Both the position numbers and the translations under genes were made by a program. Source: a virus. Taken from it: a stretch of 64,000 bases of DNA. Shown here piece by piece: positions 4,826 to 22,287 of the stretch. Positions within the stretch are counted from its first letter, which is position 1, and every line of letters starts with the position of its first letter. The notes below the pieces were generated by a model. It was not told the DNA's origin. It saw only the letters and a program-made list of their open reading frames with translations, and searched no databases. The DNA lies in IMG/VR virus record IMGVR_UViG_3300005533_000002, positions 1 to 64,000 of that record. One strand, 5' to 3'.

Positions 4826-4984
4826 GGTTTTGAGTGACTCAGTTACTCATTTTGTTTTCTCAGAACAAAGTCGGTGGTTCAATGCCTCGACAAACCCGGC
4901 GCCGCTTTCCACACAATGGCAAAGTGGCTCCTGGCGAATACAACTGTCCCTGGACGACAGAAAATGAACTGGTATAATTTGTCT

Positions 4985-5188
4985 ATGTCCAAAGTCAGCC
5001 ACAATGAACCAGATAATCACGAAGGCTTCGTGACAGTCCGAGAGGCTGCCACATATCTCCACCTGGGAATCAATTCGGTTTACCGACTAATCCAATCTCG
5101 ATTGTTGCCATCGGCGCGATTCGGTTCGCGCTCGGTGCGGATTCCACGCAAAGCGCTGTACGAATACGCGGAGAAGAGCTTGCAATGA
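4985..5188 (+). CDS. Excisionase-like HTH DNA-binding protein
   Basis: TVREAATYLHLGINSVYRLIQSRLLPSARFGSRSVRIP matches HTH_17/Xis pattern. Confidence 0.8.
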   Translation: MSKVSHNEPDNHEGFVTVREAATYLHLGINSVYRLIQSRLLPSARFGSRSVRIPRKALYEYAEKSLQ

Positions 5189-5676
5189 GCACTGAAGGTA
5201 GCGACGTGCGCATCCGCGAAATGGACAGGCCGCTGCAAATCTGGTCTTGCATCTACTTCCTTGTTGGAAATAGCAAGCTTATTTACATCGGCAAGGCCAC
5301 AGAGTTGTATCGGCGCGTCCTGTGCAGCAATCACCACGTATTCCGGGAAGATAAGGTAGACCGCATATTCTACATCCAGATCCCCGGAGCCAACGGCGCG
5401 GAGCTGGAAGCGATCGAGAGGGTTTTGATTCGGCGATTCGCTCCCATAGAAAACACAACGGTTTCCAGGGCCGGACCAAAAGACGTTGCGGTGTACCATT
5501 CCCTGGTAGGCGACTGGGCGATAGACCAGCTCATGAAGATGTTCAAAGAACACGCAATCGACCCCTTTTCAACAGACAAGCATCTTTCCTTCAAAGAGAT
5601 CGGAGAGATAGCAAAGTTAATGGCCGCAAAACAAAAAGCGGAAGATGCTATTGAACAGATAGAGGAGAAACATTGA
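5185..5676 (+). CDS. GIY-YIG nuclease domain protein
   Basis: CIYFL...LIYIGKATELYRR...H...EAIERVLIRRFAPIEN. Confidence 0.75.
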   Translation: MSTEGSDVRIREMDRPLQIWSCIYFLVGNSKLIYIGKATELYRRVLCSNHHVFREDKVDRIFYIQIPGANGAELEAIERVLIRRFAPIENTTVSRAGPKDVAVYHSLVGDWAIDQLMKMFKEHAIDPFSTDKHLSFKEIGEIAKLMAAKQKAEDAIEQIEEKH

Positions 5677-6751: not shown

Positions 6752-9700
6752 TTATTTCGCCATTTTCGATGAACGGGCAACAGCAATCCCATAGCGAATA
6801 TACTTGTTGCCATCGATATCCTTATCGTGCCAGTTGTCCAGGAACTTGGACTCTTCAATCATTACGCGGCCCGGCGCCTGGATGCTGCCGCTCTTGCGCG
6901 TGACGTTGTCCTCGCTGGAATCTTGGCAAAACACCAAGCCCAAATTTACGCCGATGACGGTTAGATAGTGTCCGTAAGCGAACTTCGCTTGGGCGGGAAC
7001 TTCGGGGCCGTAGTCCTGAACCGGGCAGATCACAGGCATGCCGGCAAGCCAGTAGCGGCGAAGATCCTCTAAAGTCAAACCGTCGCGAGCCTCAACGCTC
7101 AAGCCAAGTGATTGGAGCACTTCCACGATGGCTGCCGGCCTCGTGGACTGTTCAACGTTCGTGCCCAGAAGCTTCTTCCACTCTTCAAGCGTTGCCGGTC
7201 CGACGCCGAAGTAACGGCCCACACACATGGTCGCAGCCGCTCCGCAATTGCTAATGCAGACATTATTGACTACAATCCATCCAAGAGGAGACTCAAAATC
7301 GTACACGGGGCCGCTGTAATGGAAATTCCTAATCTCGACAATCTCATCCAAGAATATTTGTCCGGAATCTCCCTCGAGAAGCTTGCTCGCCAACACGGCA
7401 TCGGGGAGAAGGCTTTGTCCAGCGCATTCCGAAAGCGCGGCGTTCAGCTCAGAAGCTGGGCCGAAGCAGGCCGCTTGGTGTGGCGCAGAATGAGCCAAGC
7501 CGACAGGAAGAGGCAAGTTGCTGCCGCCCACCAAGCGACCAGGGGTAGCGTTCGATCCTTGGAAAGCAGACTTCAGGCCGCCGCCACATTGCAAAGAACA
7601 CTTGCGCGCACCGGAAACAACGAGATCACCTTGGCCGAATCGCTTAGAAGCCTCGGATATGACGTTGTTCGTCAATTTGCTGTAGGAACCTACAACTTGG
7701 ATATTGCCATCGAATTGCTTGGCGTCGCCGTGGAAGTCGAAAGCAAAAGCTGTAGCTTCAACTGGAAAAACTACCCCGGAGATGTTGAGGAGCGTACCAA
7801 ATACCTTCTCAACAACGGCTGGAGCGTGTTGTTTGTGGTTACTCGCGGATGCGGCCTCATCTTTCCCAACATAGTGCAAAAGACTCTGTCCTTTTTTGAG
7901 TTGGCCGGCAGGAACAAACCCTTCAACGGTCAGTATGGGATGATTAGGGGTAACGGAAAGAATCGCGCCGGAAACAGTTTTGAATTCAACGGTTTGCCCC
8001 GTGTACCTGGCTTTTGAACCGCCGATCACGCGCCCCTGCAACTCTTGGCCGGGCAAAATGCAGCTGTAATGATCGTGCTGGACGATGTCTGGAACGTTGA
8101 GAATGGCTGGACTGCCAGCGGCAAACGGCGCCTCTTCTAGCTCGCGGCGAGGTTTCTTGGCCCAGCTCTTTTCCTTGCCCGCCCTAGAGCCATGCTCAGC
8201 CAAGTGATTGAAGGCTTGCTCGTATGCTTCGGATTCGGTCATCTTTTGTGGATTGCCACGAACCAGCATGTCAAACAACTTGCTCTCTGCCTTCTCGGCG
8301 TCAGTGCCAAGTATATGCGGATAGCTGTTCATCATGCTGCGTGTGAGAAGATCAAATCCCTTCAGCTTGCTTGGGTCCAGATTGCCGCCGGCGTTTCGCA
8401 TTGCCAAGCCCGTAACATCGCCAATGTCCCGAGCCTTGGAAATTTTTCTGGCCTCTTGAAGCATCTTGGCCACGTCACTGTTTGCTTCGGCGTCGTGAGC
8501 CAACATATCGGCCGCGAGCTGGTGTAAGTGCCGCGGGTTGAGTCCCTCTTGCCGAGCCCTTTTGCCCCATCTTGCCCTATCGTATTCGGCCGATTGCTTC
8601 TTTTCGGCGCGGCCCGACTGCTCTTCCGCCGGCTCTTTGAGGGCATCGATTTTTCGTCCGACCAGTCCGGGCGCACCCTTGGTTATCCGCCCGTCCTTGA
8701 TAAAGACGTGCGTTCCACCGCCCTTCTCGTCGCCTTGTCCCGAAGCACCAATTGTGATCCACTGACCATCTTCGTTGTCGGCGGAAAACTCTTTCCGATA
8801 GCCAAGCCTGTCTGGGTGCGGCAATGGTTTATTCAAGTCGCCATATTCCGGCCCGAACGATGTTACCCGCCACTTCTGGCGAGCGGCATCCGCCTTTTCT
8901 TCGCGGACGGCCCTCTTGAACATCTTTTGCGCTTTCTTTTGGGCCGAATCCTGGTTTCTGGCAAATTGCGAATCCTGTTCGATTCCATTGATGTACAGGC
9001 TCACCCAGTGACCCATCTGCAATTCGTCGGGATCGTCATCCAATCCGCCAGCCCTGGTGTGAACTTCAATTTGGGTTTCTGGACGAGTGAACCCCCGAAG
9101 AGAAAAACCAGGAACAGTAATCGCACGGCTGGTAACTGCTTCGCTTTCAGAGCCCGAAGGCTTTTCCGCTTCGCCTCCCGTCGCCGTCCACTTGCCATCT
9201 TCATCGCGCGGCTGATCATCCGAGTAGAAAGAGACCAACTTAGAGAACAACTCGGCCAAGTTCGTCTCGCCGCGTATAAACGCGGTTGCCATTCTTTCCA
9301 ATTCTTCTTCGGTAGGCGCGAAATGGCTGCCGTGCTCGTATGCCTTCTTGAACAAATACCCTTTAAGGGATTCCTTGACGCGCTGGTGCAGGTCCGAGCC
9401 GGGCTCGGCAATCGTTCGCTTGCCCGAAGGCAGATGGAATGACTTGTCAAGTTTCTTGTCAGAACAACTGGTGTATTTTTCTGACAGCAACTGCTCGTAA
9501 TACTCGAAAGCGTCACTGGTTAGCGGATACGGGGTCTGATGCTGGCCGAAATGAACCAAGCCGGCTTCCAGCATAATAATTTGCTCATCGCTAAAGCCGA
9601 GCCATTCCCTCAGATACTTCCATACTTTGCTGGGCATAGACTGGCGCGGTTCGCGTCCTGGCTTGGCAGCGGAAACGGGAACGTGGGCGGCCTGGACGCG

Positions 9701-10417
9701 CTGATTCGCCGGGGTCGCCTTCGCCTTGGTAGCCACGCCGCCGCCGGTAGGCTCATAGTCCCATGAGCCATTCGAGTGAATCCGAATCAGCTTGCCAGCC
9801 TTCTGGCTGCCGCCCGGACTCAAAGTGTAAGGCAGCTGGATAGTAGCCACGGTGGTTTCTTCTGGCTCTTCTTCGGGCGCTTTCTCGGCGGAAGAAAATT
9901 CGAATTCGCAGCCGCAGTTGGTCAAACACTGCGACTCACCAATTTTTGGAAGCGTACCACGTGGCTGCCAGCCCAATGCAGCCGCGTCAAGGCAATCTTG
10001 GCAATGTTCCGTTGGCCCTAATACTCTACGCTCCCATTTCGCATCATCCCCCGCAGCTCCACGCTTAGAGTTCTGGTAAGTCGCATTAGCTGCGTCTGCG
10101 TACATTCCAATCCGCGTCAGCATGGAATTATCGCGCGGCGCGTTACCGCTCGACACCTGTCCGGCGAAGCGAAAGAGGTATTCAATCTGCTTGGCGATCA
10201 GGCTATTCACATGTTCGCGGGCTGCATCATCCAGCTTGTGGCCATAGCCGGCAACGCCGGCGCGACTGTGTAGCGTCGTGATGATTTCGGCCGCCTGCTT
10301 CTGCCACTGTTTGAGCGAGATGCCACCGCCCTCGACGAGGTCTTGCGTCAGATAAACCAACTCGTCGCGCGCCTCATCGATCAGCTTTTTGACGGCCTTG
10401 GTAGCTGTGGTGGGCAT
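6752..10417 (-). CDS. MuF/gp7-like minor head polyprotein with C-terminal C39 peptidase interrupted by an intein
   Basis: EHCQDC...GESQCLTNCGCEF MuF-like Cys motif; QPRDEDGKW and WITIG...HVFI linkers; C39 motifs Q-x4-S/CGAA, YGHYLTVIG, QDSS; between portal and protease. Confidence 0.8.
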   Translation of the reverse strand: MPTTATKAVKKLIDEARDELVYLTQDLVEGGGISLKQWQKQAAEIITTLHSRAGVAGYGHKLDDAAREHVNSLIAKQIEYLFRFAGQVSSGNAPRDNSMLTRIGMYADAANATYQNSKRGAAGDDAKWERRVLGPTEHCQDCLDAAALGWQPRGTLPKIGESQCLTNCGCEFEFSSAEKAPEEEPEETTVATIQLPYTLSPGGSQKAGKLIRIHSNGSWDYEPTGGGVATKAKATPANQRVQAAHVPVSAAKPGREPRQSMPSKVWKYLREWLGFSDEQIIMLEAGLVHFGQHQTPYPLTSDAFEYYEQLLSEKYTSCSDKKLDKSFHLPSGKRTIAEPGSDLHQRVKESLKGYLFKKAYEHGSHFAPTEEELERMATAFIRGETNLAELFSKLVSFYSDDQPRDEDGKWTATGGEAEKPSGSESEAVTSRAITVPGFSLRGFTRPETQIEVHTRAGGLDDDPDELQMGHWVSLYINGIEQDSQFARNQDSAQKKAQKMFKRAVREEKADAARQKWRVTSFGPEYGDLNKPLPHPDRLGYRKEFSADNEDGQWITIGASGQGDEKGGGTHVFIKDGRITKGAPGLVGRKIDALKEPAEEQSGRAEKKQSAEYDRARWGKRARQEGLNPRHLHQLAADMLAHDAEANSDVAKMLQEARKISKARDIGDVTGLAMRNAGGNLDPSKLKGFDLLTRSMMNSYPHILGTDAEKAESKLFDMLVRGNPQKMTESEAYEQAFNHLAEHGSRAGKEKSWAKKPRRELEEAPFAAGSPAILNVPDIVQHDHYSCILPGQELQGRVIGGSKARYTGQTVEFKTVSGAILSVTPNHPILTVEGFVPAGQLKKGQSLLHYVGKDEAASASNHKQHAPAVVEKVFGTLLNISGVVFPVEATAFAFDFHGDAKQFDGNIQVVGSYSKLTNNVISEASKRFGQGDLVVSGARKCSLQCGGGLKSAFQGSNATPGRLVGGSNLPLPVGLAHSAPHQAACFGPASELNAALSECAGQSLLPDAVLASKLLEGDSGQIFLDEIVEIRNFHYSGPVYDFESPLGWIVVNNVCISNCGAAATMCVGRYFGVGPATLEEWKKLLGTNVEQSTRPAAIVEVLQSLGLSVEARDGLTLEDLRRYWLAGMPVICPVQDYGPEVPAQAKFAYGHYLTVIGVNLGLVFCQDSSEDNVTRKSGSIQAPGRVMIEESKFLDNWHDKDIDGNKYIRYGIAVARSSKMAK
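7247..8062 (-). mobile_element. Intein (272 aa, residues 786-1057 of the 1221-aa protein)
   Basis: N-terminal Cys (CILPGQEL), block B SVTPNHPILT, block F YSGPVYDFES, C-terminal ISN followed by +1 Cys; removal restores VQHDHYS-CGAAATM. Confidence 0.9.
7319..8017 (+). CDS. HTH + Vsr/DUF559-like (PD-(D/E)xK) endonuclease encoded antisense inside the intein
   Basis: 232 aa; EYLSGISLEKLARQHGIG...RKRGVQLRS HTH; NEITLAESL...RQFAVGTYNLDIAI...VAVEV...ERTKYLLNNGWSVLFV nuclease core. Confidence 0.8.
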   Translation: MEIPNLDNLIQEYLSGISLEKLARQHGIGEKALSSAFRKRGVQLRSWAEAGRLVWRRMSQADRKRQVAAAHQATRGSVRSLESRLQAAATLQRTLARTGNNEITLAESLRSLGYDVVRQFAVGTYNLDIAIELLGVAVEVESKSCSFNWKNYPGDVEERTKYLLNNGWSVLFVVTRGCGLIFPNIVQKTLSFFELAGRNKPFNGQYGMIRGNGKNRAGNSFEFNGLPRVPGF

Positions 10418-10797: not shown

Positions 10798-11189
10798 GAG
10801 TTGTCCCCCTTTGCGTACCGTCCCTTCGATTGCTTGCGGTTGCTGCTGTCACCGATCGCTGCCGCGTACTCGCCGGTTCGTCGGTTGTCGCGCGTGCCAT
10901 CCCTTCCGCGCGGCGTGGTGTTGTCGCGCGATTCGTTTTGCTTTAAGCCGGCCGAGTCGGTGGCATCATTCCGCCCACCGTCCCGATAGTTCTTGACCAA
11001 CGGCTCCGCGTTCTTGCGGTTTGTCTCGTTCTGGCCATCGGCAATCGCCTTGGCGTACTGCTGCGCGGCCGTCGCACTGACCACCGAAGGCGACAGCGCC
11101 GTAAGCTGTTTCTGCTGCTCGTGCAAGTCAGAGTCGCGCAGAACGGCCGCTTGACCCACTTTGCGGCTGCGTGGCTTACGGTTGAACAT
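10794..11189 (-). CDS. Hypothetical hydrophilic protein
   Basis: MFNRKPRSRK...; overlaps end of portal gene. Confidence 0.55.
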   Translation of the reverse strand: MFNRKPRSRKVGQAAVLRDSDLHEQQKQLTALSPSVVSATAAQQYAKAIADGQNETNRKNAEPLVKNYRDGGRNDATDSAGLKQNESRDNTTPRGRDGTRDNRRTGEYAAAIGDSSNRKQSKGRYAKGDNS

Positions 11190-13128
11190 TCGCCGCCCCC
11201 CGCCGCTGCGGCACAAACCTCTTAATCCTCGCGAGTGAGCGCAACAGTGCCTTGGCCCGCAATTCCTCTTCTGGCGTCAGCCGATATTTGGCCTTGATGT
11301 CATCCAGGCTGAACCCAAGCGTTTCCGCGTCCCCTTCGTCCTCAGAGAATGGCGAGTTGTCGCCGGGTTGCTTCTTGCCGCTCTTGGTGGGCGTTTGGTT
11401 GTTGTCCTTGGGGCTCTTCTCTTTGTTCTTGCTTCCCGGCTTTGGTGCCGGGGGCGATTCACTCGGAGTTGCGCTGCCACCGGCGGCCGCATTCTTCATG
11501 CCCGCAATTTGCATCCCTTGGTCCGCTTCCTTCTCAGCCAAAGAAGCATCAGTCCGTACCGGTAGGCCAAGCTTCTCATCCAAAGCGGCGAATTGGCTTG
11601 GGCTGAGGAACTTGGATGTGACGAGCTTGGCGATGCTGTCCGCGTCCGTGTGCCAGTCGTTTTCTTCAGTGCCGCCGAATGACGCCTTCGGCGTAAGCCG
11701 CCGGGCCGCGTCCTCGCCGTAGTTGTACAGCGTCAGGTAATAGTACACGTCGCGGCGCCAGGTGGTTGCCAACTGCTGCTTCACGTGAGCAATGGGCAAG
11801 TCGAGGATGTCCTTGTGCGTCTCGCTGCTGGCGCGAGCTTGATGCTGACCCTCCATCGTGGCCAGCCGCTGCAAGAGAACTCCCTGCACAATCTGAAAGT
11901 CAAAAGTCTCGATGGCCGAGCGAAACGGCGAACCATCGCCCTGCGCCTGCACCAGCATCACTTCCGAGCCATATGGGAATGCGGCAGCCGAGTGATTGCG
12001 CAGCTGGGCCAGGGCGTTGCTCATGGCCTGTTCTGGCGTTATGAGTGGGGCAGAAGTTGGATTGCCAAGGCTATCAGCCGGCGGCGCCGTCACGGCGTCT
12101 TGCGGCGTGAAGCCGATGTAACTCGGGCTGCCGTGCAGAGCCAGGTAACGGATGTACTCGGGCCAAACTTGTTGCTTCAGCCACCACGGGGTATAGATGG
12201 ACCGCAAAAGACTATTGCCGCGTGGGTCGCCGTTCTTCGGGTTGTACGTGAAGATGACGAACTTTTCGCGCGGTAAAAGATTGGGCAGCACCGATGGATT
12301 GGCCACGATGCTGCCCACCAAGACGGGAAAGCCTTGGCCCGGAATCAAACCAAGCAGACCCACGACGTTCATGTAAGCATCGACCACAAAGCCCGTCGCT
12401 TCGCGGGGCTTTACTTTGATGCTCTTGAGAACCAGCTTGCCCTTGTCTTCGCCCTGTCCGGGGCCGTAGACCTTCTCGCCGATCTTGTGTCCAAGGTAGA
12501 TGCCGGCCAACAGCTCCCAGCAGACCTGCTCGACGGGCTGAAAATCAAGATTCTGGTCGCAACGGCCACAGAACTCGGCAATCTCTTCAGCCAGTGGGTA
12601 ATCTTCGTCGTCCTTATCGTCAATCGCCGGCAACGCCTTGATTCCTTCGGCGAGCACAGAAAGCATGAGCAGGGTAATAGACGAGTAGACTTGCGCGTCG
12701 AGCATCATGCGTTCGTAGATGTCGGAACCGAAATCGCGCGAGAGGTCATCGACGTAATGGGGGAGCGCCTTGAGATAATTGCTAAGGAAAGGAAAATTTT
12801 GGCCGGCGACGTACTCTTGCGTTGGGACCGCTTGCCGGCTTCCGTAAACCTGTGCATGTGGCGCCACAACGGGTGGCCCCTGCGCATCGACGGGAATAGT
12901 CTGCGGTTTTCCCAGCGGCGACTTCTCCGGCTCGCCATCCTGCCAGTCAGTCGCTGCCTGCTGGTCTCTCTTCTTCACTTTAACAGTGTCGGCAGCGGTA
13001 GCGGCTGGATATGCGAATTGCGCCTGATCGGGCTGCTTTGATTCTTCGGCCATTCTGGGCGACTCCGAAAGTAGGCCAAACTCCATCATATAGTTGCTCA
13101 ATTGTTTGAGCAACTCATACCGTCTCAT
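11176..13128 (-). CDS. Portal protein (DUF935/Mu gp29-like)
   Basis: YERMMLDAQV, LPREKFVIFTY...GDPRGNSLLRSIYTPWWLKQ, ARASSETH, LTLYNYG motifs. Confidence 0.85.
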   Translation of the reverse strand: MRRYELLKQLSNYMMEFGLLSESPRMAEESKQPDQAQFAYPAATAADTVKVKKRDQQAATDWQDGEPEKSPLGKPQTIPVDAQGPPVVAPHAQVYGSRQAVPTQEYVAGQNFPFLSNYLKALPHYVDDLSRDFGSDIYERMMLDAQVYSSITLLMLSVLAEGIKALPAIDDKDDEDYPLAEEIAEFCGRCDQNLDFQPVEQVCWELLAGIYLGHKIGEKVYGPGQGEDKGKLVLKSIKVKPREATGFVVDAYMNVVGLLGLIPGQGFPVLVGSIVANPSVLPNLLPREKFVIFTYNPKNGDPRGNSLLRSIYTPWWLKQQVWPEYIRYLALHGSPSYIGFTPQDAVTAPPADSLGNPTSAPLITPEQAMSNALAQLRNHSAAAFPYGSEVMLVQAQGDGSPFRSAIETFDFQIVQGVLLQRLATMEGQHQARASSETHKDILDLPIAHVKQQLATTWRRDVYYYLTLYNYGEDAARRLTPKASFGGTEENDWHTDADSIAKLVTSKFLSPSQFAALDEKLGLPVRTDASLAEKEADQGMQIAGMKNAAAGGSATPSESPPAPKPGSKNKEKSPKDNNQTPTKSGKKQPGDNSPFSEDEGDAETLGFSLDDIKAKYRLTPEEELRAKALLRSLARIKRFVPQRRGAANVQP

Positions 13129-18184: not shown

Positions 18185-18634
18185 ATGCGAATCAACCGAA
18201 GAAGGGCTTTGGGTATCCTGGCCGCAGCGCTGGCCGTCCCCAGTGCAGCCCTCACGTATTTCTTCAGACAGCGTCCAAAGCGGAAACTGGACTGCCACGA
18301 TGTCGCCATCGAGTATGCCCGCGCCCTCCTTGGATTCGAAAACGGCAGGCCGACTACTCCGCAAGATTGCTGTTCTCCAGCGCCTCCAGCCGGACTATCT
18401 GAAGAGCAGGCTATCACGATTGGTTGCGTGATAGGTGCTACAAACCGAATATGCGATTCTTCCAATCCATCCGAAGCAGAAATTACAAAACGATTTTTCC
18501 GCGAATACGTTGTGCCACGGGCACGCAAGGCGAAACTTGAAAAATTCATATACGAGATTAAGGATCTTGCCACCAATGCGTACGCTGACAAAATCAAGAA
18601 ATACGGTTTCACTCTCGAACCGTGGCATTACTGA
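18185..18634 (+). CDS. Hypothetical protein with twin-arginine-like leader
   Basis: MRINRRRALGILAAALA; AAGGAG RBS; opposite strand to neighbours. Confidence 0.6.
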   Translation: MRINRRRALGILAAALAVPSAALTYFFRQRPKRKLDCHDVAIEYARALLGFENGRPTTPQDCCSPAPPAGLSEEQAITIGCVIGATNRICDSSNPSEAEITKRFFREYVVPRARKAKLEKFIYEIKDLATNAYADKIKKYGFTLEPWHY

Positions 18635-21600
18635 ACTTTGATCATCGCCGTTGCGGTTGCGCGGCCCCAAGAACCCTGAGCCTCGAATTCTGCCATGCAG
18701 AGGTACGTTCCGGGCGGAAGACTCCACAAAGTGAATTTGGTCGTTCCGTCTGAATTCAGAACGTGGGGGAATGCTTGGTTGTTCTGGAATCCGCTGTAAG
18801 ACATCGTCAGCGTTCCCCGTGGGATTGTACCATCCGAAGACGACACACTCACGTTTAGCGTCGGATCTTTTTGGTTGCCCGAATAGATCGGCGAAAGAGG
18901 AGCAGAGATGGTAATGGTAGTTACCTGGCTCCCCCCCCCTCCAGAAGGCTCCACAATTAAATCGCCCCGACCTTTGCTAGTCTGGAAGTTTCCAGTCGGA
19001 ACAAAAGTAGCGTCTAGAGTGTAATCACCAGGTCCGCCCGTAGGATGCAAGTTGTAGCTGGCGATTCCGCGCGAATCAAGACTGGCGACAATAGGGATTC
19101 CACCACTCACGGATAACTTGACGCTACCAGTGGGAGTGCCGCTGTTCGAAGTCACGCTGACGTTGACAATCGCATTCGAACCGTCCGTCACCGACGGCGC
19201 ACTGATTGACAGCGTTGTGGCGATCGGCCCGCTCCCGCCCCCGCCGTTGCCAAACGGATTGACAGTTAGGTCAGCATGGGCGGTGCAGCCTTGGAAGTTT
19301 CCAGTCGGTACGTAGGTAGCGTCCAGCGTGTAATCACCTGGGCCGCCAGTCGGGAGCAAGTTGATGCTGGCCGTGCCGCTTCCACCCAGCGTAAGCGGGA
19401 ATGGCTTTCCGCCGCTGACAGACATCTGCACAGTTCCGATCGGTGTGCCGCCAGCCGATTGCACCGTTACCGTAACCGTAGCAATCGAGCCGTCCGTGAT
19501 CGGCGGAGCCGAAATAGACATTGTCGTTGCTGCCGGGCTTCCGCCGCCTCCGCCCGTAGTGACGACTTTGATTTGCTGCTTCGTGCTGTCGATCTCGCCG
19601 ATTGAGTTCTGTGCTGGATACTCAGCCCAGACCCTATAGGTGATGCCGGGAGGCTGCATGACGAGACTGGCGAAGTGATAGACCGTCTGGCCGTTGCCAT
19701 CCAGCGTGTGCTGGAAAGGCGAGCCGGGGAAGCCGTCGATATGGAGCCAGACGTTTCCCGACAGTGGGTTGCCCCTGCCGTCCGTCACAGTCACGGTGGC
19801 TGTGGGGTCCTGTCCCGCTATCATCGTGGCCGGGATAGGAGAGACGGATACAGAAGGCACAGCGGGTGCCGGCGGGGGCGGCGAATCGACCAGAATAGAG
19901 CTTATTGGACCATCGTTGGAGCCGGCGTACTTGGTGTCATCGTCGGGCGAGAAGTTAGCGTCGAAACCCACAGCTACGCCCCCGGTTCCCCACGTGTCGA
20001 GCCAATTGTCTGCTGCATTGCCAAATTGTGATGGAAAGAAGGCGAATTGAGATTGGTCCGGATAGTGAAACGAAGCCACCGATAACGCGGCAACGTTCCC
20101 AAAGAGAACCACATCCGTTACTGTCACGGTTCCCGGCGGCGTTGAGCCATCGTCCGCCGTTACCTGAACGGACCCAGTCCGCTGTGTATCGTCTCGGTAA
20201 ATCGGATTCGGCACAGTCAGCTTTATGTGCGTAGGTACCACGCTGGAAACCACGCCCGGATAGACCACCAATGTCTGCGGGCCGCTGTCGCTTTCCTGGT
20301 AGTCGCCTTGAGCGGGAAAGTTGGCGTCTAACTGGTAGGTGCCGGGTGCTAGGCCGCTGAGATCAAAGGCTGCTTGGTTTTGGGTGAATTCAACCGTGCC
20401 AAGAACCAATCCGAACGGGCTACCAGTGAGCGGCGAGAAGTTGCCCGTCTTGGGGTCTTGCACCGAAATGCTCAGATTCACCTTGAAGCCAGCCAGGTTG
20501 GCGCCGTCGTTGGCGTTGGTTTGAACATACGCCGACACTGGCACCACAGGGCCGGCGGTAAAGCTTGACGGAAGCTGCAAGGTTGTCTGAGTCGGAACTG
20601 TTTTGCCAATCACTTCTGTATCGCGCCATCCGGTGCAGCGGCTACTATATCCGTTCTGTCGATCGTAATATGCCATAAGTATCCAGTGCTGCCTTCCAAG
20701 CGACGAGAGATCAAAGTTGGCGTCTCCATTGCTGTCAAGATCCTGGTAAAGAGATAGGCTTTGCCCGTCATCTCCAGTACATACCAATTCCACTGTTCCC
20801 GCCGGACTAGACCAATCAATCGCGTCAACATGCGCCGTTATCGTGGAGCCGCTGTCAGCATAGTATATGTCAGGCGGCTCCAAGGTGATTTCTGTTGCGA
20901 CCTCCTCCTGAACTGTCAGTTCGTATACGTCACTCTGCGCGTCGGCAAAGCCGTTGTCACTGTGGTATCGGAGCTGAATCTGATACACTCCAGGATCGAA
21001 ATCTTGTGAAAACGAGGCGGCCGCCGATTCGTTCAAATTGCAGGTTGTATAAAGTTTTCCATTAACTATAACGTCCACCTTACCCTGTGGCACCGGGTCG
21101 CCATCGTCGTCAGATTTCAAATACATGTAAGCAGTTGGAACCGGTACAGGAATGCTACGAAATTTAGGAATTATCGGAGGAGCTTTCAGCCTTAATTTGA
21201 GTCCTTTCTGCAAAGCTCCGGGAAGTCCGTGCTCAAGCGGAATGCTTATGTCCAATTCCAATTCAAAATTGAGATGTCCAAGGGGGAACGGGTTTGGTAT
21301 TCTTATCTTCTCCTTCTTGTTCTTAAGGTTATTGACGGTGTACCCCCAACGTTCCCCGTTTCCAAAAATCCATGCAGCAACAGCCTTGTCTTTGTCGCAC
21401 GGCCGGTATTTGCTCCACTTAGGAAAGCTGGTTCCTATTTCCAGTTTCGGGTTCGGGTCAAGCTCTGCCCAGCAGCCACCAAAGGTGTTGAGTATCTTTG
21501 CCCCCACGGGGGCTAGAACAAATGGCGGTCCTTTTGCCGACCCAAAAGTAGCGGGCTGATCTATCATGCTGCTGCCGTTGGCATACCAGAACCATTTCTG

Positions 21601-22287
21601 TCGAGTTGTAAAAAGCGGCTGCTCTCTTAGGTGATGATCTGTGCCAATCCAAGGCTCGCCTTCTCTCGCTTTGTCGAAATACATCCATTCTCCCTGTGCA
21701 TACTGAATGGAATACTGTTTCAGCGTGAGCTTTGGCGCGTAGGTGGTTTGGATAATTTGACACCACTGATACAGAGAGCGAGGAATCGTCGTTCCGACCG
21801 AACCAATGGACAGCCTAGCTCCAGAGATTCCGTAATCGTCCTCGTACGGATCTAGGATCGGAATTGGTCGCCAGTCACGCTGGTTCAGGCCTAGGGAAAC
21901 GCCGTTAACGTCTGGGATTCCTGTCTCGGCATACACGCCGTAGCGTACAGGCATAAGGAAGGAACCGATGGCTCCTTGAGCGTTGCGTGGCTCCGGATCT
22001 ATCAGTAAATATGGCACCGGTTTGTCAAGAGGCCCCCGTGGCATATAGAAAAGCTTTTGATACGTCAAGAAAGTGAATTTTGGAAACAGAATGTCTCCCC
22101 CACCCGGATCAGATAACTGAATCCATTCGCTACGGTACGGGGTTGCGGTAACTACAATTTGGTTTCCGTCTGGACCCGCCGGCCCAATTGCTTGGGCCGG
22201 ACTGGCAACCATCGTGCTGACTCTTTGCGCCTGTGCAATCCCAACAGAGAATAGAAGAATGATGGCTGCGAGGGTAAGGTTTCTCAA
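18628..22287 (-). CDS. Large secreted protein with tandem bacterial Ig-like (Big_3-type) repeats
   Basis: Signal peptide ending AQA; repeated TTxxxxxP...VxV...PxGxV...G.Y.L.A.Y units over the C-terminal two thirds. Confidence 0.8.
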   Translation of the reverse strand: MRNLTLAAIILLFSVGIAQAQRVSTMVASPAQAIGPAGPDGNQIVVTATPYRSEWIQLSDPGGGDILFPKFTFLTYQKLFYMPRGPLDKPVPYLLIDPEPRNAQGAIGSFLMPVRYGVYAETGIPDVNGVSLGLNQRDWRPIPILDPYEDDYGISGARLSIGSVGTTIPRSLYQWCQIIQTTYAPKLTLKQYSIQYAQGEWMYFDKAREGEPWIGTDHHLREQPLFTTRQKWFWYANGSSMIDQPATFGSAKGPPFVLAPVGAKILNTFGGCWAELDPNPKLEIGTSFPKWSKYRPCDKDKAVAAWIFGNGERWGYTVNNLKNKKEKIRIPNPFPLGHLNFELELDISIPLEHGLPGALQKGLKLRLKAPPIIPKFRSIPVPVPTAYMYLKSDDDGDPVPQGKVDVIVNGKLYTTCNLNESAAASFSQDFDPGVYQIQLRYHSDNGFADAQSDVYELTVQEEVATEITLEPPDIYYADSGSTITAHVDAIDWSSPAGTVELVCTGDDGQSLSLYQDLDSNGDANFDLSSLGRQHWILMAYYDRQNGYSSRCTGWRDTEVIGKTVPTQTTLQLPSSFTAGPVVPVSAYVQTNANDGANLAGFKVNLSISVQDPKTGNFSPLTGSPFGLVLGTVEFTQNQAAFDLSGLAPGTYQLDANFPAQGDYQESDSGPQTLVVYPGVVSSVVPTHIKLTVPNPIYRDDTQRTGSVQVTADDGSTPPGTVTVTDVVLFGNVAALSVASFHYPDQSQFAFFPSQFGNAADNWLDTWGTGGVAVGFDANFSPDDDTKYAGSNDGPISSILVDSPPPPAPAVPSVSVSPIPATMIAGQDPTATVTVTDGRGNPLSGNVWLHIDGFPGSPFQHTLDGNGQTVYHFASLVMQPPGITYRVWAEYPAQNSIGEIDSTKQQIKVVTTGGGGGSPAATTMSISAPPITDGSIATVTVTVQSAGGTPIGTVQMSVSGGKPFPLTLGGSGTASINLLPTGGPGDYTLDATYVPTGNFQGCTAHADLTVNPFGNGGGGSGPIATTLSISAPSVTDGSNAIVNVSVTSNSGTPTGSVKLSVSGGIPIVASLDSRGIASYNLHPTGGPGDYTLDATFVPTGNFQTSKGRGDLIVEPSGGGGSQVTTITISAPLSPIYSGNQKDPTLNVSVSSSDGTIPRGTLTMSYSGFQNNQAFPHVLNSDGTTKFTLWSLPPGTYLCMAEFEAQGSWGRATATAMIKVQ

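Follow-up and report, generated by a model that had tools for sequence, protein, structure and literature searches.

The window analyzed here, a stretch of 64,000 nucleotides that comprises positions 1 to 64,000 of the IMG/VR virus record IMGVR_UViG_3300005533_000002, carries on its minus strand the gene of a minor head protein that is interrupted by an intein, and the opposite strand of this intein contains a second open reading frame (ORF), whose predicted product combines a helix-turn-helix (HTH) domain with a nuclease core of the Vsr fold. The source record, 77 kb long and bounded by terminal repeats, represents the complete virus genome. An earlier reading of the letters alone (the sequence-only reading) had described a 272-residue intein opposed in exact register by a 232-codon plus-strand ORF, and the coordinates and motifs of that layout were all found to be correct. 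The features of the locus are the following.

6752 to 10417, minus strand: host gene, a single ORF for a 1221-aa minor head protein with a MuF-like N-terminal part and a C39-like peptidase C-terminal domain
8063 to 10417, minus strand: N-extein, 785 aa, last residues ...VPDIVQHDHYS
7247 to 8062, minus strand: HINT intein, 272 aa (816 nt), host residues 786-1057, with Cys1, block B (TPNH), block F (VYDFES), a C-terminal Asn and a +1 Cys
6752 to 7246, minus strand: C-extein, 164 aa and the stop codon, a peptidase domain of the C39-like papain fold whose first residue is the invariant Cys of Q-x5-C-G
7319 to 8017 (stop 8015-8017), plus strand: antisense gene for a predicted 232-aa HTH and Vsr-fold nuclease, in codon register with the intein
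7484 to 7678, minus strand: intein residues 129-193, sense read-through of the nuclease gene, predicted disordered linker (pLDDT <50)
7724 to 7738, both strands: 15 bases that encode VAVEV (plus, active-site strand of the predicted nuclease) and DFHGD (minus)
7940 to 7951, both strands: TPNH of intein block B (minus) and MIRG of the nuclease tail (plus)

The intein and the antisense ORF

The intein is classed as a HINT fold from its structure model. Block B (T38-P-N-H41) lies at 7940-7951 and the VYDFES sequence of block F at 7289-7306, and the C-terminal junction reads ...CISN|CGAA (the bar marks the splice junction here and below), in which N272 is invariant; C1, T38, and H41 are invariant among 37 aligned homologues. 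The sequence-only reading had seen no LAGLIDADG or HNH motif in the central region of the intein and had asked whether this region might itself fold as a known one. Residues 129-193 are modelled at pLDDT values below 50, no endonuclease fold is present, and a structure search with the intein model gave no match other than HINT. The middle of the sense frame, which is predicted to be disordered and is not conserved, would be filler between the two HINT halves.

The plus-strand ORF at 7319-8017 runs for 232 codons without a stop. Since the codons of both frames start at coordinates equal to 2 modulo 3, the two frames share one codon register, in which nuclease residue 249-r is the antisense partner of intein residue r. 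The VAVEV/DFHGD and TPNH/MIRG overlaps proposed from the letters are both exact. The ORF extends through the N-terminal splicing blocks as far as intein residue 17 and does likewise in 75 relatives.

Identity and fold of the predicted nuclease

Similarity of the antisense ORF to Pfam families is weak, with matches to REase_MTES_1575 (1e-4), DUF559 (0.09), and HTH_28 (E 0.005). In a HMMER scan of 1.84 billion representative proteins, 1756 clusters matched at E<=1e-3, of which 1057 also passed E<=1e-10, and the alignments were full-length in almost every case; the closest protein relatives (P0004, P0005, and P0018) are 50-52% identical. The profile of 84 family members matched the DUF559-like structure 3hrl (1.9e-5) and 3r3p, the catalytic domain of I-Bth0305I (0.011), and its N-terminal part matched the tandem-HTH protein 2lvs (E 4e-6). 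An AlphaFold model based on the 84-member alignment has a mean pLDDT of 93.5 and a pTM of 0.79, and is uncertain only at residues 141-160. The informative structure comparison for this model was a VIA-align search, which gave a Vsr-fold match; Foldseek against the PDB returned nothing at E<=0.001, with 3r3p ranked second at a probability of 1.0. Taken as models, these matches support an HTH domain, a helical linker, and a Vsr/EDxHD-like nuclease core of the PD-(D/E)xK superfamily. The sequence-only reading, which had arrived at an HTH and a Vsr/DUF559 core by eye, had agreed to be given up if no nuclease fold was matched, and such matches were obtained, by the profile to 3hrl and 3r3p and by the model to the Vsr fold.

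Residues around the predicted metal site are strongly conserved. E102 is present in 81 of the 84 relatives, D128 in 84, E139 in 83, and R159 in 81, and these four together with Q119, Y125, and N126 are conserved to at least 95% across these closest members. Judged by motif order and the ranges of the structural alignment, rather than by residue-level superposition, E102 and D128 are the counterparts of Glu170 and Asp196 in I-Bth0305I and of Glu25 and Asp51 in Vsr, and E139 is an extra acidic position at the place of Vsr Phe62. Candidates for the final Asp (Asp222 in I-Bth0305I, Asp97 in Vsr) are D155, E157, and E158, which precede R159 and whose columns are not conserved in the family.

Recurrence of the two open frames

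A tblastn search with the nuclease matched 88 phage records, including phages of Salmonella, Pseudomonas, Gordonia, Escherichia, and Vibrio, Aaphi23, Cronobacter phage ES2, and Mycobacterium phage Sejanus. In all 11 of the phage records that were inspected the match lies opposite an annotated MuF or minor-capsid coding sequence (CDS), a single CDS is annotated across the region, and the antisense ORF is annotated in none (0/11). With 80 metagenome loci and another 13 taken from the genomes of prokaryotes, metagenome-assembled ones included, the window and these 11 records make up a set of 105 loci; among the 13 are Pseudomonas paraeruginosa ATCC 9027, Atlantibacter, Thiothrix, and lineages of Acidobacteriota, Chloroflexota, and Actinomycetota. 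Throughout the overlap, neither the nuclease frame nor the frame opposite it in register is interrupted by a stop in any of the loci (105/105 open), which is the outcome that the sequence-only reading had looked for when it proposed a survey of antisense stops in homologous inteins. In most loci the two ends of the sense frame are marked by N|C...PG and (S/H)N|C, respectively. Free-standing relatives of the nuclease were absent among the 105 loci, a sample that favors embedded copies since one of its two search patterns was the intein-shadowed tail motif, and a search of viral contigs with the single nuclease protein found no match.

The placement of the antisense gene is uniform. In all 11 curated phage loci its start codon (ATG or GTG) is the antisense of the His codon directly before block F (VYDL-type), and its stop lies no more than about 25 residues from the N-terminus of the intein, the corresponding value in the window being residue 16. 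This points to one ancestral fusion that later spread, rather than to repeated independent invasions.

How much weight an open antisense frame carries depends on the use of TTA, CTA, and TCA in the sense frame. The window has 57% GC and these three codons make up 1.2% of the host codons, which gives a probability of about 0.06 for an open antisense frame of 232 codons. Computed from each phage's own use of the three codons, the chance is 0.1-0.25 in GC-rich actinophages, 5e-5 in Aaphi23, 1e-5 in an Idiomarinaceae phage, and 7e-6 in a Vibrio phage. The open frame in the window alone is only mildly unlikely, and the weight lies in its recurrence in all 105 loci.

Selection along the overlap

In a codon alignment of 75 non-redundant nuclease genes the constrained frame changes along the overlap, which falls into three segments.

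7319 to 7714, plus strand: nuclease residues 1-132 (predicted HTH, helical linker, and first nuclease strands including D128), opposite intein residues 117-248; nuclease frame constrained
7715 to 7894, plus strand: nuclease residues 133-192 (with VAVEV/DFHGD, R159, and GW167-168), opposite intein residues 57-116; mixed or dual constraint
7895 to 8014, plus strand: nuclease residues 193-232, which face splicing blocks A/B (intein residues 17-56); intein frame constrained

Over residues 1-132 nucleotide identity at codon positions 1, 2, and 3 of the nuclease frame is about 0.44, 0.51, and 0.32, so that position 3 is the most variable, and amino acid identity is 0.33 in the nuclease frame versus 0.19 in the sense frame (p 2e-20). 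Over residues 133-192 the two frames are nearly equal (0.285 nuclease, 0.271 sense, p 0.37) and the codon positions are without clear pattern, and over residues 193-232 the order is reversed (0.28 nuclease, 0.44 sense, p 1e-5), with nuclease codon position 1 most variable. The closely related pair Fosterous and Angelicage has the same pattern at a short evolutionary distance. Because the intein frame is the constrained one over residues 193-232, the tail of the nuclease family, QYGMIRGDG, is largely a shadow of intein blocks A/B, and from the same map the sense motif DFHGD is a shadow of the nuclease strand VAVEV. The antisense purifying selection that had been suggested as a test is thus present over residues 1-132 across homologous inteins. 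The accompanying idea, that staying open is all that is required of the sense frame, is right for part of the overlap and fails over nuclease residues 193-232, where the intein frame is constrained. The locus is a viral case of double coding on opposite strands over about 700 bp, in which the protein of each strand is under measurable selection in its own segment.

That the plus-strand ORF is a mere shadow, untranslated and open only passively because it faces a true gene in the register least prone to stops, can be given almost no credence. The chance values for the window alone and for the GC-rich actinophages would allow it, but it is contradicted by the codon positions, of which the third is most variable in the plus frame over residues 1-132, with an amino acid identity nearly twice that of the sense frame, and it does not account for a confident model with a Vsr-fold match or for a frame that stays open in every locus, including AT-rich phages in which the chance is of the order of 1e-5.

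Another reading starts from the sense strand and holds that the host gene is a fractured gene, in which the two halves of a split intein flank a free-standing nuclease gene, the host product is made as two polypeptides, and the sense read-through is not made as one chain. Vsr-like endonuclease genes had earlier been known from between the halves of split inteins (Dassa et al., 2009, PMC2677866), and the disordered middle of the sense frame would suit this arrangement. Its form with a free-standing endonuclease on the same strand was ruled out, as the host ORF of 1221 aa spans the region unbroken and the nuclease is encoded on the other strand. More generally, a fractured gene is very improbable, since the sense frame is uninterrupted in all 105 loci, strongly against chance in the AT-rich phages, the 11 records each have one CDS across the region, and a nuclease gene on the other strand brings neither a stop nor a start for the host halves.

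The host protein and the site of insertion

The host gene is directly downstream of the portal gene (11176-13128, minus strand) and upstream of a protease-like gene and the gene of the major head protein. Its assignment to the minor capsid or head-morphogenesis class comes from the adjacency to the portal gene and an N-terminal MuF-like motif, TNCGCEF; residues 9-180 match phrog_24776, and a blastn search of the gene against the phage collection found no match. The C-extein of the window matches Pfam PF13529 weakly (E 0.012, 16.6 bits, under threshold), and intein-free homologues exceed the Pfam cut-offs, with up to 42.8 bits to Peptidase_C39_2 (PF13529) and 51.6 bits to C39 (PF03412). Among 51-54 homologues, neither the +1 Cys nor the Gln six residues upstream of the junction varies. 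Because these two residues are invariant and the intein-free homologues pass the C39 cut-offs, the intein is placed immediately before the nucleophile of a papain-type peptidase.

The intein splits the window protein as ...VPDIVQHDHYS|CGAAATMCVG.... The insertion is missing from most homologues of the host protein, the junction (...Q-x4-S|CGAA...) being uninterrupted in about 47 of 51 peptidase-domain homologues, which represent empty sites, and a related intein is present at the same C39 point in three others. Such patchy presence is typical of a mobile element. The usual site of related inteins is a different one, the MuF motif HPN|CRC, which is occupied in most relatives; the MuF-like motif of the window's own host protein, TNCGCEF (9902-9922, minus strand), is uninterrupted. 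One metagenome protein of 1323 aa (P0169) is a portal-peptidase fusion in which a related intein, 57% identical over its N-terminal half, is inserted at another position and the C39-like domain is uninterrupted.

Besides CRC and CKC, the same lineage of intein and antisense nuclease is found at no fewer than ten other types of extein junction (loci L013-L092, including L013, L014, L015, L017, L023, L025, L031, L063, and L069), such as N|CKYGF, N|CLCY, N|CMLGF, N|CQIVE, N|CGGKC, N|CKTPL, N|CLGAL, N|CAAIP, and N|CVVAA. This variety of junctions implies that host sites were switched repeatedly.

A probable mobile intein with its homing gene on the opposite strand

The locus is probably a mobile intein whose homing-endonuclease gene is encoded on the opposite strand. 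The two ORFs and their folds, the openness of both frames throughout the family, the frame-specific selection, and the existence of intein-less sites are direct observations from which this reading is built. The minor head protein would be translated straight through the 816-nt intein and, provided that the intein is competent, splicing by Cys1, TPNH, the terminal Asn, and the Cys at +1 should restore the Q...C active site of the peptidase. The nuclease, if active and transcribed separately, would most likely cut intein-less alleles of the peptidase-coding sequence in co-infecting relatives, and recombinational repair would then copy the intein together with the nuclease gene into the cut alleles. 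The DNA is divided between the strands, with no constraint from both on every codon, such that the first ~130 nuclease codons serve the nuclease, the last ~40 serve the N-terminal splicing blocks of the intein, and the ~60 between them carry both. With the frames in codon register, each of them would need only to avoid TTA, CTA, and TCA in order to keep the other open.

Several observations weigh against this reading. No His is present in the nuclease core (residues 96-200), and the general-base His (His69 in Vsr, His213 in I-Bth0305I) has no counterpart in the window nuclease, in which the loop at 141-160 is also modelled with low confidence. Upstream of the nuclease ATG there is no Shine-Dalgarno-like motif, and the sigma-70-like match that lies 43 nt upstream of it (TTGCTA-17-TACAAT, 7248-7276, plus strand) is no better than chance alone, one being found where 0.9 are expected in the region. 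Finally, four other metagenome runs contain an identical intein-containing allele, and no presence/absence polymorphism was seen in the lineage. These runs are mine metagenomes from 2024, from a study other than that of the 2017 soil sample that is a possible source of the record, and their contigs have zero differences over 6752-10417; because identical contigs occur in a separate study, the virus was present in more than one sampling campaign. The contigs bridge both intein junctions (7246|7247 and 8062|8063) and none has the intein-less joint, with several bins without cover in individual runs. A joint from 6922 to 7194, with 27 letters on its shorter side and 80% likeness, was discounted as probably derived from another organism.

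The missing His raises the question of whether the antisense product is still a nuclease. After the VAVEV strand the sequence is variable, and the GxxWH motif reads SKSCSF in the window. This had led the sequence-only reading to warn that the copy may be inactive, and decay is not what the family indicates. Only some 14 of the 84 closest members retain the GGxWH motif, the loop after VEV is hypervariable among them, and, because the motif is missing in about 70/84 while the positions from E102 to R159 stay at 95% or more, the loss of His is, judged from this alignment, a trait of the subfamily and not a sign of decay in the window copy. Among the 11 inspected phage records a GG-x-W(H)-like motif after VEV is found only in Gordonia phage Malisha (L005) and Salmonella phage SE1 (L011); in the other nine a short loop of hypervariable sequence takes its place, and in many of these VEV is followed by a His, at once or within a few residues (VEVH, YSxH).

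It is conceivable, if rather unlikely, that proteins of the His-less subfamily are no longer nucleases and are kept as DNA-binding proteins, for example as a regulator, as a helper in repair or recombination, or as the partner of a nuclease acting in trans, or that the element is now inherited only vertically. A core without His and with a hypervariable loop would be expected from such proteins, several groups of antisense-VSR inteins do look vertically inherited (bioRxiv 10.1101/2025.01.02.630785), and the virus is identical in two studies in which the intein-less allele was not seen. However, the acidic and polar residues that surround the Vsr/PD-(D/E)xK metal site are conserved to at least 95% in the His-less members, with D128 in 84/84, and would be dispensable in a remnant that only binds DNA, and the occurrence of one intein lineage at many extein junctions, together with a C39 site that is mostly empty, argues for continuing mobility.

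The sequence-only reading had proposed that homing is expressed from an antisense transcript uncoupled from late expression of the host gene, and the candidate signal for such a transcript is the sigma-70-like match, a weak one. Its letters are those complementary to block G and the terminal Ser-Asn, which in the subclade of the window gives TTGCTx-17-TACNAT. L014-L016, the three nearest DNA relatives, have it at the same position and with the same spacing. Much of this agreement can be put down to coding periodicity, as -10-like hexamers peak at spacers of 2, 17, and 21 after a -35-like site. The full match is present in only 8/59 loci, and the promoter test provides no evidence of function. 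In several other phages a GAGG or GGAGG lies 12-13 nt before the nuclease ATG and is formed by the antisense of block F (YDL-E/Q). It is a speculative and somewhat doubtful idea, drawn from these predicted signals and from the fixed start codon opposite the His before block F, that the two genes may be locked together in this way, with the most conserved splicing motifs doubling as expression signals of the antisense endonuclease. If the signals work, the endonuclease would have a transcription program independent of the late head operon, and the majority His-less subfamily would cut DNA with a Vsr-fold active site that lacks the general base of Vsr.

Other features of the window

Two plus-strand ORFs at 4874-5676 lie in a head module that is otherwise on the minus strand. 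The first encodes a 104-aa protein of the HTH_17 family (excisionase-type, Pfam 6e-11), and the second, which overlaps it, encodes 163 aa without a Pfam or PHROG match, with an N-terminus (…IYFLVGNSKLIYIGKA…) that resembles a GIY-YIG motif by eye. The pair may be a free-standing mobile nuclease cassette. At 18628-22287 (minus strand) a 1219-aa ORF contains seven Big_3_5 Ig-like repeats (Pfam 5e-48), has no PHROG match, and probably encodes a decorated structural or adhesion protein.

Comparison with known systems

Canonical large inteins such as PI-SceI and PI-PfuI contain an in-frame LAGLIDADG or HNH domain. They share with the window intein a HINT domain that is interrupted at the same topological point by a homing-endonuclease module, as well as insertion at a catalytic residue of the host protein. 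The excised window intein differs in being without a nuclease domain, the predicted endonuclease being a separate polypeptide from the other strand.

Homing endonucleases of the Vsr type have been described in introns and between the halves of split inteins, encoded on the same strand (Dassa et al., 2009, PMC2677866; Taylor et al., 2011, PMC3239194), and the antisense arrangement is not mentioned by Dassa et al. (2009, PMC2677866). I-Bth0305I and the nucleases of fractured genes resemble the window protein in their modular N-terminal DNA-binding region, in a C-terminal Vsr-fold domain with counterparts of E102, D128, and E139, and in being tied to a self-splicing element in phage genes. Unlike the window nuclease, they are encoded on the same strand, within group I introns or flanked by the halves of split inteins, and keep the general-base His213, and the similarity is weak (profile E 0.011 to 3r3p).

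A homing endonuclease opposite a contiguous intein is itself not new. Antisense LAGLIDADG inteins, in Synechocystis DnaX and others, date from 1998-2002 (Gorbalenya, 1998; Gogarten, 2002; both as cited in bioRxiv 10.1101/2025.01.02.630785), and, as far as that account of them goes, they share this layout and differ from the window in their endonuclease family, LAGLIDADG rather than Vsr-fold, and in being hosted by cellular genes. Closest to the window are the inteins of Gosselin, Arsenault and Gogarten (bioRxiv 10.1101/2025.01.02.630785, October 2025 version), whose survey of PhagesDB describes 63 non-canonical inteins, including antisense VSR-like endonucleases in full inteins of minor capsid genes, and interprets the actinophage inteins in the way preferred above for the window. 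The suggestion of the sequence-only reading that the arrangement may be unreported is overtaken by this work. With a contiguous intein, a complete VSR-fold ORF on the opposite strand, and a phage head-morphogenesis gene as host, the window belongs to these antisense VSR homing endonuclease (HEN) inteins and is a further member at a new extein site.

The likeness to the inteins of Gosselin et al. extends to the contiguous intein in a phage minor capsid gene, the antisense nuclease ORF, and a sense middle without a recognizable fold. Gordonia phages of their data set (Affeca and 'Angelicase', apparently Angelicage) are direct tblastn matches of the window nuclease, and their section 15 puts those under another HEN type. 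The window differs in that its host is an uncultivated soil or mine virus rather than a PhagesDB actinophage, in that the insertion is at the catalytic Cys of a C39-like peptidase and not at the MuF site, and in that the nuclease ORF, in the window and its 75 relatives, runs through the N-terminal splicing blocks. The range also reaches well beyond the actinophages, to Salmonella, Pseudomonas, Vibrio, Cronobacter, and Aaphi23 phages and many metagenome lineages. What the window adds to the published systems is therefore a new extein site, a layout that is common far outside the actinophages, and a quantitative map of which strand is constrained. Because none of the 11 public records annotates the nuclease gene, inteins that are filed as 'mini' or 'decaying' may hide working endonuclease genes, and the layout fits the view that inteins gain mobility genes by the invasion of free-standing endonuclease genes.

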